From Octopus vulgaris (Eukaryota): a stretch of DNA of 64,000 nucleotides. Under the pieces are notes generated by a model. That model did not search any database. It was not told where the DNA came from and saw only the letters and a program-made list of their open reading frames with translations. The translations under genes and the position numbers were made by a program. Positions 22,708 to 57,866 of the stretch are shown in pieces. The stretch is taken from positions 72,416,001 through 72,480,000 of the forward strand of contig OX597822.1 of assembly GCA_951406725.2 (NCBI GenBank), in the 5' to 3' direction. The first letter of the stretch is position 1; each line of letters starts with the position of its first letter.

Positions 22708-23999
22708 TATATATGTATGTATATATATGTGTGTATATGAGTGCATGTGTAGGTATATTTATATCTGTATGTATCTCACTCTATATATTTACATATATGT
22801 ATATATATATATACGTGTGTGTGTGTGTGTGTATAAGTATGTGCATAGGTGCGTAATTATGTATGTATGTGAGTGTATAGACAAATGTAAGCAATTAAGT
22901 GTCATAAATATTGTAACGTGAATTATTTGGAATAAACAATTACAGTAGAAAAGATAAGATAAAGCCAAAATACAAAAGAAGTAATAGAAAATAGAGACAT
23001 CAGTAAAAACGAAGGGAGCAAAGCTAACGACAACATTATAACGAATAACAACAAAAACGAATACCTTATGAATATGAAAGAGTGTTGAAGCAAACCTAGC
23101 TTGGAATTAGCGACGTACATAATAACACAATACTAGACAAAACGTTATAGAAATATGAAGGAAGATATGTATGTATACACACACACACACTTCCATTTAC
23201 ATATATCTTCCTTGTTTCAGTCACTGGTCTGTGGCCATGCTGGTGCACTGATTCGAAGCGTTTAATCGAACAACTCGGCCTCACTTCTCTCCTGCCGTAA
23301 ACTCAGATGAAGGTTTTTCAATTTCTTATTGAATAACCTGTAGAGGTGATTTGCTTATAACAATCAAATGTTTGGATTGTACATTAGCTCACTCTCCTAC
23401 ATCATTTAGATGCGCGACAGAATAGAGGCTACCTCACTGGCTCGTGAATATCATTTCCAATGGAGGGTGCCCTCACAATCACATCCAGCCACTCAAAATG
23501 TTCCAGAATGTCAGAAAGCAGCGCATATCCTACTGATTCCTACAATTAGCAAAGAGTATTTGTCTGTCTTACTCTTTTCTTCTTTTACTTGTTTTAGTCT
23601 CTTGACAGCGGCCATGCTGGAGCACCGACTTTAGTCGAGCAAATCGACCCCAGGACTTATTCTTAGTAAGCCTAGTACCTATTCTATCGGTTTCTTTTGC
23701 TGAACCGTTAAGTTACGGGGCCGTAAACACACCAGCATCGGTTGTCAAGCGATGTTGGGGGCATAAACACCGACACACAAACACGCACACACACATACAC
23801 ACACACATACATACATACATATATATGTATATATATATATATATATATACGGTTAAGTAATTGAGATTCTAGTGAATTCTAAAGAATTCACATGAATATG
23901 GTCCTTAACTAGGATGCACCGGATATCTATATGGTGTTAGCCATACGACAAGTGGGGTGATTATAAATAGGAAAAAAGCAACAAGAATGGATTAAAATC

Positions 24000-24083
24000 T
24001 CGGTACGATCGTTTCGTACGAGGACATCTTTAATAAGCTACAAAAAATGCAGTGAATACAGATGGCTCGTACTCGTCAGCCGA
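24000..24083 (-). ncRNA. Type I hammerhead ribozyme (left arm)
   Basis: Exact reverse complement of 24645-24728. Confidence 0.88.
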
Positions 24084-24644
24084 AAAAATATCAGAGAATT
24101 CCCAAACATCAAAAGGGGTAGATACAAAAGAGGTTGTAGGATTAACTGCATTGAAGAAAGTTCGATTCATGGAGATCTGATGAAAGGTTTTAAACCTATA
24201 GAATTTATGCATGTCTACATATAGCTCATATTGAATATTTGATCAAGTTGTATGAAGAAATTTTCGGATACAGTCATGCAAAATTTCTGAAAATCCGAGT
24301 AAGAGGCAAAGTGACTGCCACATCATGTAGAGGAAAGACTGAGTAAAAACATAGTGACTGTCATGTCGTGTAGAGGAACAGATTGTTATTGAAATTAACA
24401 AGAATCGCAGATAAGTTCGATTTTTTTGGAGATCTGATGAAAAAGTCTTGAACTTACAAAATTTGTGTATGTCCTTATAGTTCGTAATCCAGTTTTGTGG
24501 AGGGATTTAGGGTACAATCATGCGAAAATATCAGGGAGTCCGAATGAGAAGCAAAAATGACAGCCTTATATTGTAGTGGTTCAGGTAGTTAATGACAAAT
24601 TTGTATCTACCCCTTTTGATGTTTGGGAATTCTCTGATATTTTT

Positions 24645-24728
24645 TCGGCTGACGAGTACGAGCCATCTGTATTCACTGCATTTTTTGTAGCTTATTAAAG
24701 ATGTCCTCGTACGAAACGATCGTACCGA
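24645..24728 (+). ncRNA. Type I hammerhead ribozyme (right arm)
   Basis: tcgg CTGACGA gtacgag...ctcgtac GAAAC gatc GTA ccga: intact core, perfect 7-bp stem II, palindromic ACGATCGT helix III; predicted cleavage 3' of A24724. Confidence 0.88.
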
Positions 24729-24789
24729 GATTTTAATCCATTCTTGTTGCTTTTTTCCTATTTATATATATATATATATATAATTATAT

Positions 24790-24985
24790 AAATTAGAGAC
24801 AAAACCACTATTAGGCAAATCAAACAATGAAAGACTTAAGCCAATACATATGATTAATTTATATTATTTAAATATGTAACAAAATTATTAAAAAATATAA
24901 TTAATATATATAATTTACTATAAAATTGGATTCAATCCTAAATCTGATTTTTCCCTGTAAGTTTGGATTTATTCCCTAATATTTA
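24790..24985. mobile_element. AT-rich PLE-terminus-like repeat family F
   Basis: AATTAGAGACAAAACCACTATTAGGCAAATCA and TTGGATTCAATCCTAAATCTG blocks shared with 38630-38906 and 57446-57760. Confidence 0.7.
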
Positions 24986-42868: not shown

Positions 42869-43302
42869 GTTGATATTTTCAATAATAACGCTGAATTCTA
42901 TAACTCTGCCTTAATCAAAGCAGGTTATACAGAAAAAATTTTCTACATTCATTCTGCTGTCTGATTGTAAATTCAATAATGTAGATAAGATTTCTAGTCG
43001 TAAAAGAATTATTGATAACAAACATAACTTACGCACCGATACAAAGCGAATGAAGGCAGATAACCCTTATTTATTCCCCTATTATCGATCTAAAAGTAAA
43101 TATAACACCTTCTAAAGTAATTACGCTATGAATACTAGTAAAAATATTTGGTTAATAATTCCTTACGGGAGACAAATTAAATCTAATCTCCCACTGCTGT
43201 TTCGTCAAGCTATTGCTAGGAATTTTCCAAACAATTCTAGATATTACTCTATAATTAATTCACATAAGGCTAGGGTAGGTTTTTCAAACACAAAAAAATC
43301 TC

Positions 43303-43770
43303 TTGCAAATTATATCTTCTCATAATAACAAACTGTTAAATATTAATACATTTACTAATACTAACATTAATTTAGCTAATACCATCCAACCCTCTAGAAA
43401 TATTAATAACAAGGTTATTGTATCTGAAGTCAATTCCAATAGAATTAAATTTATGTCAAGTAACTCTAAGATTAAAAATTCTATATACCAGTGTATAATC
43501 AGTACTCGTAATAAAGTACGATTTTACATTGGAAGCACATCGTTAGAGTTATCTAAAAGAATTTCTATCCATTACTCAAAATTTAGGGATAGAAATAAAC
43601 GGAATAGTACCGGTCTCAGCAAACTGATTTGGGATTTAAAAGACCACAATGAACAATTTCATTTAGAATGGTTGATCCTCTCAATTTCGATACCATATGA
43701 CAAAGGCAAGAAATTCTGTCTTCTCTGCAATTCTGAGCTATTTTTCATTATTTTTTCTAAAATACTCTAG
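43303..43770 (+). pseudogene. GIY-YIG endonuclease domain of the PLE
   Basis: 155-aa ORF with IYQ...YIG, conserved Arg, and CxLCxxE. Confidence 0.88.
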
Positions 43771-44160: not shown

Positions 44161-44206
<46 letters not shown>

Positions 44207-44714
44207 TGTGTGTGTATAGCGGTCAGCTCTCGCCAGGTTGAAGAAAGCGTGTCTGCCTGTTTCCTTTATAGATGTTATGCGAAGCACTTCTGAAGTGGTT
44301 TTGTTGGTTTTACAGCGTTCTCTTTCACCATCTCGAATATTTCTGCTCTCGGGCATTATCGCTTGGTAGAAGTAGAGTCTATAATGTGTTTAACCGTTCT
44401 TTTGACAAGTTTGTTTTAAATACTTACATATATGCGTTCATCCATGCACGTACAGATGCATAGATGCATAGATACATACGTTTATACATACATACATGCG
44501 TACATCCATACATACGGTTATACATACATACCTGCATACATACAGCAGGCGTTAGAGCGTCGAATAGAATGTTTTACAATTAATTCTGGTTTCCTCACTC
44601 TCGGCGCAAATCAGATGAGGGATGCATGCATAAATATTGCATACATTTTTTTTTACTCACTGGCATTAGCCAATGAGGGTGGCTCTACGCCGTCCTTAGA
44701 TTTCCAATAGATAC

Positions 44715-45055
44715 TCTTTTACTCTTTTACTTGTTTCAGTCATTTGACTGCGACCATGCTGGTGCACTGCGTTTATTCGAGCAAATCGCCCCCAGGACTT
44801 ATTCTTTGTAAGCCTAGTACTTATTCTATCGGGCTCTTTTGCCAAACCGCTAAGTTACGGGGGCGTAAACACACCAACATCGGTTGTCATGCGATGCTGG
44901 GGGGACAAACACAGACACACTAACATTTACACACATACATACATATATATTTATATATATATATATAAATACATATATACGACGGTCTTCTTTCAGTTTC
45001 CGTCTACCTAATCCACTCAGAAGGCTTTGGTTGGCCCGAGGCTATAGTAGAAGAC
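44715..45055 (-). mobile_element. SINE family A (head missing)
   Basis: Collinear with the reverse complement of 2865-3239. Confidence 0.88.
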
Positions 45056-45385
45056 GGTTATTTTTATTTTCTTATATCTTTTAGTTTGGAGGGAAGAGAA
45101 TATGCATCGCTCTTTGAAGGAGCAATATGGCATGGATTCATTCCCCGTAGGCAGCGGAATGAATCCTCAAACCCGATGCATGGACTGATTGCTTTCAATA
45201 GATAGGACTTTACTGAAGATAAACGTGTTACAAAGTCTGAGAATGAAATCTACAACCCACAAAAATACTAGAGCGAGATTTAAATTTGGCGAAAGGAACA
45301 AATACACATGCCACAATGTTTCCGGTCCGGTAGTCTTGCAGTTCCACCAATAACAACGCCTTTGAATAATGTTTTTTATCTATAA

Positions 45386-45600
45386 GGCGGCGAGCTGGCA
45401 GAACCGTTAGTACGCCGGGCGAAATGCTTAGGGGTATTTCGTCTGTCTTTACGTTCTGAGTTCAAATTCCACCAAGGTCGACTTTACTTTTCATCCTTTC
45501 GGCGTCGATAAATTAAGTAACAGTTGCGTACTGGGGTCGATCTATATGACTGGGCTCCTCTCGCAAAATTTCAGACCTTGTGTGCCTCGAGCAGAAAAGA
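45386..45600 (+). mobile_element. SINE family B, tail type 2
   Basis: GGCGGCGAGCTGGCAGAA head and core, tail AAAATTTCAGACCTTGTG..AGAAAAGAAT. Confidence 0.88.
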
Positions 45601-45788
45601 ATATTTTTTATCGATCTGGAATTATTGAAAGGTAAAGTTCACCTCGGCAGGATGAGAAATTCCAGATCACTGACATTTGAGAGAAATGTCTGACATTCTA
45701 ACGACCCTTTTATGAAATTACATCCTATTTGCTTAAAAAGTGTGATCATTGGTTAGTGAGGTTCGCAGTGAATTTTGTGCAATTAGAA

Positions 45789-46062
45789 ATGGCTCAGTGG
45801 CTAGGGTTTTCGGCTTTCTGTTCTTGAGCAAAACAATTTATTTCTCATGACCCCAGTGCACGCAACTAACAACAATGAGAGGTACCTATTTTTCAGATGA
45901 CCAACCTTGTCACACTGCGTATCACGCATAATTTCCCTGAGAAGTTCATTACGGGTACGCATGTCTGTGGAGTGCTCAGCCACTTGCACATTTTTCATGA
46001 GGAGGCTACTCCGTTGATAGAATAAACTGGAACGCTCATCGTCGAAACTGACGAGTGCCAGT
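45789..46062 (+). mobile_element. tRNA-derived SINE family E (internally deleted)
   Basis: A-box TGGCTCAGTGG, CORE-like TGTTCTTGAGCAAAACA, 3' hairpin; single copy in the window. Confidence 0.55.
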
Positions 46063-46071
46063 TTAAGGTAC

Positions 46072-46121
<50 letters not shown>

Positions 46122-46215
46122 ATGTGTGTGTGTATGTGTTTACACATACATACATATAAACATATGTATGAGTGGTCGTGTGTGCACGTAGCCTCACATG
46201 CACACATACACACAC

Positions 46216-46287
<72 letters not shown>

Positions 46288-55799: not shown

Positions 55800-56568
55800 A
55801 ACTCACTTTCGCTGTGCTTGGAAGGAAGGTGTGTAGCGTGTGATCGTCGCATTGAACATGACAGAGAATGTCGAGCACAGAATCTGCATGAAATTTTGCC
55901 AAAAGCTTGGCGATACTTGTTGAGAGGCCTATGCAAAGTTTTTTTAAACGTTTTCATCGTTCTCGACGCAATCAAGATCTTGGGCAACTGAAACCCGAGT
56001 ATATTTTTGATCAGTTGAAAGCAGCTTTAGCATAAACCGGCGGATACGCGTCTCATACTCAAATCCTCATTGATAATGGACTGAACTGAACCGTAACTAA
56101 TCAGCACATCCTCTGATAACTAACGGATGGTGATTCGACGATTTCCCCTCACAACTGATCGCACATATGAGATGTCTTCCTGCGTTCTGCTGGCTGCGGG
56201 ACTCCCAGATCGTTCGTCAATGTCGACATTTTTTCGGCCATCTTAAAAACGTCTGAACCGTTCGTACACTTGTGTGCGACTCATACACACTCCTCCATAC
56301 TCTTACTGCAACTTTGCAACTGTATCTGCAACTTTTTGCATTTTCTGGAACGCCATGACAACTTTCTCTGTCATAGTCAATGCGACGATCACACGCTACA
56401 CACTTTCCTTCCAAGCATTGCTGTAAACAGCGGTGGTAAGCTGCAACGTTAAAACCTAGGGCGCATGCACAGCAGAGTTCAAGGTCAATCTTTGCCAAGC
56501 GGCTTTACTTTGCGTGCTTTAGCTTCGCTTCTATGGTAACACTCCGGATACTTATTGATCAGACCTAG
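55800..56568 (-). mobile_element. Mariner 5' fragment with an inverted duplicate of its start region
   Basis: Minus strand: TA + TIR CTAGGTCTGATCAATAAGTATCCGGA, then MSRTQVYERFRRF*DGR..DERSG.P..NRRITIR..SYGSVQSII..L.MRRVSA. Plus strand 55800-55945: MTENVEHRICMKFCQKLG. Confidence 0.88.
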
Positions 56569-57413: not shown

Positions 57414-57445
<32 letters not shown>

Positions 57446-57453
<8 letters not shown>

Positions 57454-57760
57454 TAAATTAGAGATAAAACCACTATTAGGCAAATCATACAATGAAAAAC
57501 TTAAGCCAATACATAAGATTAATTAATTTATATTATTTTAAATATATATCAAAATTATTAAAAAAAGATAATTAGTATAACACTACGATCGTTTCATGGC
57601 TGTCCAATTCGTAAAAATTCGAGTTACAGTCATTCTTCAGGTGATTTGCCTAATAGTGGTTTTATCTCTAATTTAATATAATATAATATTTTACTATAAA
57701 ATTGGATTCAATCCTAAATCTGATTTTTCCCTGTACGTTTGGATTTATTCCCTAATATTT
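57446..57760 (-). mobile_element. Family F PLE-terminus-like repeat with ~42-bp inverted repeats and hammerhead
   Basis: Inverted repeat 57446-57487 / 57642-57683; (TA)n flanks. Confidence 0.75.
57581..57643 (-). ncRNA. Minimal type I hammerhead ribozyme motif
   Basis: cac CTGAAGA atgactgt...acagccat GAAAC gatc GTA gtg; palindromic ACGATCGT helix III. Confidence 0.8.

Positions 57761-57866
<106 letters not shown>

Follow-up and report, generated by a model that had tools for sequence, protein, structure and literature searches.

Penelope-like elements (PLEs) form the sister group of telomerase, and Craig et al. 2021 (PMC8557442) count the way in which they produce tandem and inverted insertions as an open problem. 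The Hydra clade described there, which includes Hydra-1_Obim and Penelope-13_HM, has RWx and DKT motifs, a CxCX5C linker, CxxC and CxH motifs, no CCHH, a canonical hammerhead near the 3' end and (TA)n targets. Its elements are generally <3 kb, the hammerheads listed have a loop II of 3-10 nt, Penelope-13_HM carries an attached inverted 5'-truncated copy, and the supplement lists one octopus family, 2.5 kb in length and of a different sequence from the one reported here. For PAc, a Poseidon PLE of Anolis (Frangieh et al. 2024, PMC11167929), two internal reverse transcriptase (RT) starts bound the tail; in vitro, both target strands are cut and extended, with unprocessed RNA serving as substrate. 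Minimal type I hammerheads of metazoan PLEs (Cervera and De la Pena 2014, PMC4209133) occur as opposite-strand pairs 100-700 bp apart. In the Penelope families of Adineta vaga (PMC3846280), inverted pseudo-LTRs have a one-sided tail of 31 bp, junctions are palindromic and ORFs contain Asn-rich inserts; a self-priming, antisense-template model was proposed for them, and their low copy number allows no pairing statistics.

We analyzed an insertion in a 64,000-nt stretch of the Octopus vulgaris genome (contig OX597822.1, positions 72,416,001 to 72,480,000), hereafter the window. An earlier sequence-only reading had described identical inverted arms that each hold a complete hammerhead, a tail of ~110 bp on the left arm and (TA)n flanks. 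All four descriptions hold: the arms are 167 nt each, 100% complementary and spaced by 471 nt, every part of the motif is present on both strands, the tail measures 112 bp, and (TA)n stands at either end of the unit (Table 1). Positions in the element are counted from the predicted hammerhead cut, and its two fixed 3' ends are termed long (L) and short (S). The tail belongs to the first part of the 5' UTR in full-length copies and stops 54 nt short of the ATG. The duplication within the spacer retains 69% identity over ~180 nt, and the 4-nt junction filler forms a small palindrome.

Table 1. Features of the inverted insertion, in window positions
Feature	Position	Strand	Remark
Main (L) arm, 5'-truncated PLE copy	23850..24595	-	About -596 to +154 relative to predicted hammerhead cut
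112-bp tail	23850..23961	-	Sequence between short (+42) and long (+154) 3' ends
Left inverted-repeat arm, pseudo-LTR part with hammerhead	23962..24128	-	
Type I hammerhead motif, copy 1	24000..24083	-	Predicted cut after 24004 (GUA); motif and covariation
Spacer, element 3' UTR	24129..24595	-	Contains old ~250-bp internal duplication
Junction filler CAAA, 4 nt	24596..24599	.	Reverse complement of right arm's first 4 nt
Inverted (S) arm	24600..24766	+	-124 to +42; terminus on TA-like patch TATTTATA (24759-24766)
Type I hammerhead motif, copy 2	24645..24728	+	Predicted cut after A24724
(TA)n-rich target tract, L end	23821..23849	.	Sequence
(TA)n target tract, S end	24763..24782	.	Sequence

Other repeats lie nearby. 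A separate TA-targeted repeat at 24784-24985, assigned to family E, adjoins the S arm within the same TA tract and looks like a 202-bp back-to-back mini-pair of another PLE-like family; family E has 980 candidate places genome-wide. A longer family E copy at 57439-57790, with a 49-bp inverted repeat and (TA)n flanks, carries its own hammerhead on the minus strand (57640-57584; loop III GATC, extended stem II). The window also contains a Hydra-type GIY-YIG coding remnant at 43146-43767 (37% identity to protein P0002, E 4e-13) and two more short inverted repeats, at 44164-46259 (54 bp at 98%) and 55815-56417 (57 bp at 93%).

Judged by its sequence, the unit arose by head-to-head insertion of a young Hydra-clade PLE and is 5'-truncated. 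Its minus strand matches the best 40 of 1,863 candidate places at 96-100% over 690-750 nt, and among these 40 the whole 911-nt arrangement occurs in the window only. The 29 other copies examined have a common fixed 3' end ahead of TA-rich repeats and variable 5' ends; a 33-nt piece of the ribozyme 3' half has 339 exact copies in the genome, compared with 0 for the reversed control. The PLE origin proposed in the sequence-only reading is confirmed by ORFs for RT and a GIY-YIG endonuclease (EN) upstream of the same 3' end, of 875 aa in the 5'-truncated copy L032 and intact and ATG-started in L074 (1,071 aa) and L076, each behind a partial pseudo-LTR. These ORFs have no in-frame stop and so give no reason for a selenoprotein reading. 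Protein P0002 (1,071 aa, with a YRDD motif) combines RT and a C-terminal EN in a single ORF and could be aligned across both with 19 homologues, and a homologue labelled Octopus sinensis has 67% identity. The GIY-YIG Pfam match on P0001 (E = 0.0024) is below the curated cut-off, a PDB sequence search found no relative of the protein, and a homodimer prediction for residues 1-485, made without an alignment, scored 0.00, which speaks neither for nor against a dimer. A search for the autonomous parent, also proposed earlier, succeeded in part: L074 and L076 are intact full-length relatives, and the search yielded no exact full-length donor for the subfamily in the window, L076 differing at 28/632 sites and the closer L032 being 5'-truncated.

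The family shows the traits of EN+ PLEs, namely partial tandem pseudo-LTRs, inverted 5'-truncated copies and a tail (L074, L076, L082-L084; 43 pairs); the earlier reading of an inverted pseudo-LTR and tail as PLE traits agrees with the literature, in which inverted arms, tails and opposite-strand hammerheads are all published. Its motifs match the Hydra definition as given in PMC8557442. The N-terminal motif is RIRWRT (RIRWKT in sister family B), PADKTG provides DKT in place of DKG, and the linker CNCRIKSKC conforms to CxCX5C. CQLC...E...LNSR...CIH supplies CxxC and CxH around the conserved E and N, and with no Cys pair between IIY and YVG, CCHH is absent from EN. The canonical hammerhead near the 3' end and the inverted 5'-truncated copies, the latter as in Penelope-13_HM, are likewise shared, and (TA)3 or longer adjoins 83/85 L ends and 72/72 S ends.

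In contrast to the Hydra elements described in that source, the octopus unit is ~4.7 kb from cut to cut (L076), hammerhead loop II has 43 nt, and the tail has 112 nt. The ORF reaches ~1,070 aa, versus ~700 in homologues, through two Asn-rich inserts that appear in none of the 19 aligned homologues, and the N-terminal sequence differs from that of Hydra-1_Obim as given in the supplement. Other clades were rejected: Naiad (whose EN is N-terminal) and Neptune by domain order and the absent CCHH, and Nematis and Penelope-Poseidon because the endonuclease has no CCHH motif. The genome contains at least four coexisting young families of Hydra type, whose long open ORFs measure about 840, 960, 980 and 1,090 aa.

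The hammerhead of each arm reads TCGG-CTGACGA-GTACGAG-(43 nt)-CTCGTAC-GAAAC-GATC-GTA-CCGA. It comprises helix I (TCGG/CCGA), the core CTGACGA, helix II (GTACGAG/CTCGTAC) bearing a 43-nt structured insert, GAAA, a 2-bp helix III with the palindromic loop GATC, and the cut triplet GTA; CUGAnGA, GAAA and NUH stand at a three-helix junction, as in type I. The motif resembles the minimal hammerheads of PMC4209133 in its 4-bp helix I, 7-bp helix II, 2-bp helix III and palindromic loop suited to dimers, and differs from them by the long structured helix II extension, which is present in five related octopus families (A, B, C, D, E). The pairings CATCT/AGATG and CTGCA/TGTAG, from which the sequence-only reading had deduced an extended stem II, appear in the minimum free energy (MFE) fold. 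The Rfam search that it had proposed was negative, with no match at the gathering score or at E <= 10, likely because of the 43-nt insert.

Folding predictions point to a ribozyme of the dimer-dependent type of PMC4209133. The 96-nt hammerhead region has z = -3.64, with 0/200 shuffles equally stable, and the MFE fold of a single motif differs from the active fold. Two motifs cofold at -53.4 kcal/mol compared with 2 x -23.7 kcal/mol for monomers, a preference of 6 kcal/mol for a dimer that contains helices I and II plus an 8-bp intermolecular helix III. Double changes occur in 2/4 pairs of helix I, helix II is 100% paired over 10 sequences, and loop III is self-complementary in every related family seen (GATC, GATT, AATT, ATAT, AGCT). 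At the window locus, a fold of the whole unit buries both motifs entirely in the 167-bp duplex on either strand, which gives in silico support to the competition between hairpin and ribozyme suggested earlier. Read-through would indeed yield a ribozyme together with its antisense, and whichever strand is transcribed, the antisense arm precedes the ribozyme. For both reasons, hammerhead cleavage at this inverted locus is predicted to be blocked.

Further features of the ribozyme region may be recorded. ATTAAA, a hexamer resembling a poly(A) signal, lies on the plus strand of the window (24694-24699) within the stem II extension, some 25-30 nt upstream of the predicted cut, and is followed by a U/GU-rich run; such a combination may arise by chance in AT-rich DNA. 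The homologous site reads AATAAA in families B and C and is absent in D. In family D, the two core halves of the hammerhead are about 85 nt apart.

The inverted arm cannot be regarded as a passive copy, because its terminus is one of the two fixed 3' ends of the family. Among 165 distinct copies, 85 terminate at L (+151 to +154) and 72 at S (+37 to +43), 5 continue into the ORF and 3 stop elsewhere. The 43 back-to-back pairs comprise 40 L+S, one L+L (L019/L022) and 2 others. Because some loci had been chosen with a tail-containing query, the count was redone on 98 of the first 100 listed pattern matches, which are independent of the tail. This end-unbiased sample gave L+S in 34/35 pairs, one of them at a duplicated locus; the 39 singles comprise 17 L, 21 S and 1 other. 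From the frequencies of the singles a fraction of 0.49 is expected, and 33/33 L+S pairs were observed (p = 8e-11). L127 and L131 are two more L+S pairs that were counted as singles owing to split alignments, and L076 is an S+S composite left uncounted by the 400-bp pairing rule.

Related families share the pattern. Samples of the sister families are small. Both ends recur in sister family B (75% protein identity), where 4/5 loci with a main as well as an inverted arm are L+S; long and short ends are also present in families C and D (about 49%), and each of these two provided one L+S example. The spacing between the S and L ends is 112 nt in family A, that of the window, about 185 in D and about 90 in C. 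The near-constant pairing of L with S suggests copying of RNA from two fixed start points, likely one for each cut strand of the TA-repeat target.

Each of the two ends falls on a TA-like patch of the template, TATTTATA at S and AATATAT at L, and a C-rich run comes after either patch. The junction word at the S end is CCTATATATA in most of the 72 copies and CCTATTTATA in at least 14; at the L end it is CCGTATA in over half of the 85 and CCGAATATA in 14. Both ends vary by 1-7 nt in a manner that tracks TA complementarity, and these variants fit those expected if a (TA)n primer annealed with or without mismatch. In the S copy L073, the 3' end abuts (CTAT)n instead of pure (TA)n, and the CCTAT of the element keeps the register of that repeat; this junction fits priming by homology to a pre-existing target.

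The region from the cut to the start codon adopts a closed multibranch fold in families A and B (z = -8.8 and -7.2 versus 200 shuffles). The predicted closing helix of this fold (13 bp) joins +11 to +24 to the AUG region, and similar pairing is predicted in family D. In 5/5 sequences, the prediction leaves the S and L patches unpaired (0.58-0.93) and pairs the AUG (0.0). A further patch at +72, just as TA-like, falls within a predicted helix and is never an end. Across 13 related sequences, the named structure is 96.4% paired and outperforms all slid controls; double changes were found in 6 pairs, of which 3 belong to the UTR, 2 to hammerhead helix I and 1 to the stem II extension, most UTR pairs being invariant in this sample of 13 kin.

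We assign a probability of roughly 0.7 to the reading that the window unit is a young, 5'-truncated, head-to-head Hydra-clade insertion made by twin priming at two fixed RNA start sites. The template would be a tandem transcript that continues past its hammerhead, left uncut (or re-ligated), and on into the folded 5' UTR. The GIY-YIG nuclease would nick both strands of the self-complementary (TA)n, whereupon one 3'-OH would anneal at S, on the unpaired patch UAUUUAUA, and the other at L, on the patch AAUAUAU. The two cDNAs, usually from one RNA or donor locus, would then be joined at their 3' ends via short overlaps or fillers, and abort of one primer would leave a solo L or solo S copy. The hammerheads would be passengers of the pseudo-LTR, predicted to depend on dimers and to be silenced by the 167-bp duplex in the inverted scar.

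The structure of the pairs bears on several of these steps. In a symmetry test that kept 33/39 pairs, six with split alignments being dropped, the S arm extends further 5' than L in 9/33 and the L arm further in 15/33, the window among them; arms ending <=15 nt apart were found in 9/33, compared with 1.2 expected. L148 and L150 have L stubs of 21-28 nt that do not overlap the S arm. Given the S-longer pairs and these non-overlapping stubs, both arms are derived from RNA in many cases. The 33 junctions comprise 12 overlaps of 1-6 nt, 2 blunt joints and 19 scored as filler, filler lengths at several loci being inflated where they differ from the reference copy. Paired arms differ by 0.65% overall and have 86 shared non-majority sites versus 61 private ones, so the two arms mostly stem from one RNA or one donor. 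A single RNA cannot account for every pair, since the arms of L087 are 3.75% apart and have different nearest relatives. In a nearest-neighbour test on 21 pairs, the partner ranked first in 6, shared first place in 5 and came behind another copy in 10; where overlaps exceed 400 nt, it ranked first in 5/7.

An arm can extend across the cut site only if its template is uncut or re-ligated. Only 2/156 5' ends fall within -5 to +7 of the predicted cut; 5' ends show no heaping there among the 156 tested, which agrees with unprocessed RNA as the substrate in vitro (PMC11167929). The octopus family resembles PAc in having two internal RT starts that bound the tail, extension of both target strands, A/C-rich sequence at the starts and an uncut RNA template. 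PAc starts lie inside the ORF with a tail of the 30-40-bp kind and are neither target-homologous nor strand-specific. In the octopus family, the ends are in the 5' UTR on TA-like patches separated by 112 nt, and L is strictly paired with S. Counterpoints to twin priming are the L+L pair L019/L022, the S+S composite L076, the near-symmetric arms, L087, the outcome of the nearest-neighbour test, the PAc starts that are alike on both strands and not target-homologous, and the thin covariation of the UTR. The near-symmetric pairs could reflect fold-back self-priming, or two copies that stopped at one broken RNA end.

The alternative that fares best, and which we consider unlikely, is single priming with fold-back or template switch. 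RT would start at L only, turn back on its own cDNA at the truncation point, copy to +42 and join the other target end via the TA patch, in a manner related to the self-priming proposed in PMC3846280, whose families share the inverted pseudo-LTRs, one-sided tails, palindromic junctions and Asn-rich inserts of the octopus elements. The near-symmetric pairs, the greater 5' extent of L in 15/33 pairs with the window included, the small palindrome at the window junction and the variants usually common to both arms are all as fold-back would have them, and it possibly operated in the 15 L-longer and 9 near-symmetric pairs. It is excluded as the only route by the 9/33 pairs in which S is longer, and solo S copies as common as solo L (21 vs 17), the non-overlapping L stubs and the different donors of the L087 arms argue against it as well.

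Still less probable is that nuclease resolution of a longer integration intermediate, by a staggered cut 112 nt apart, sets the ends in place of two RT starts. This is how the tail is read in PMC8557442, and it would yield one tailed and one tail-less end per insertion, as seen. Against it, the 1-7-nt heterogeneity tracks TA complementarity at both ends, the end spacing varies among families A, D and C, and tail ends were mapped to RT start sites in vitro in PMC11167929. A perfect inverted repeat with TA flanks would also be explained by a fold-back artefact of the assembly or by a MITE-like DNA transposon whose 167-bp arms are terminal inverted repeats; both can practically be dismissed. The full 911-nt arrangement is found in 0 of the other 39 best-scoring places, which refutes a transposon bounded by such repeats among the 40 scored; the arms form the 3' end of an element that encodes RT; dozens of other pairs share these ends and have their own junctions; and the arms are asymmetric, with differing flanks. 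Among the public contigs listed, none bridges the junction 24595/24600 and those at this place continue into ordinary family sequence, which is evidence for neither artefact nor polymorphism; no RNA record with the sequence was listed.

The main arm differs from copy L002 at 1 of 746 sites, in support of the very young insertion that the sequence-only reading had supposed. The identity of the arms alone is weak evidence of youth, because the same 167 nt are 100% identical at 12 other places among the 40 scored. If the scale implied by PMC13282606 (JC 0.09 = 25 My) applies, the insertion is roughly 0.2 My old. Identical insertions with shared flanks recur at L012-L014, L017, L018 and L026 (contigs C35, C36) and at L140/L141; these sit in large segmental or tandem duplications and are thus not independent events.

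The pattern of an inverted repeat with hammerheads is in itself known. Inverted arms, a one-sided tail, Asn-rich inserts and palindromic junctions are already published in PMC3846280 and PMC8557442, as are two start sites bounding a tail for the Poseidon element of PMC11167929. In the open-access literature searched, we found no description of the octopus family, no count of the L+S rule, no target-like patches at both starts and no fold that buries the AUG; the genomic end maps of PMC11167929 may bear on the pairing.

With its intact ORFs, simple (TA)n target, two sharply mapped ends, near-absolute pairing of long with short and a predicted RNA fold that places both ends, the octopus family is a clean test case. 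A tentative extension, which we regard as rather doubtful, is that the 5' UTR acts as a telomerase-like structured RNA domain: its closed fold would bury the AUG and present two single-stranded UA alignment patches, so that a ribonucleoprotein with two active sites primes both (TA)n strands in a fixed and asymmetric way. If this were true, each insertion would be two-armed in principle and the fold would serve as a switch between translation and template use. Many perfect hairpins have been left genome-wide, with 35 pairs among the first 98 ribozyme matches examined, and wherever transcribed they would be double-stranded RNA substrates.
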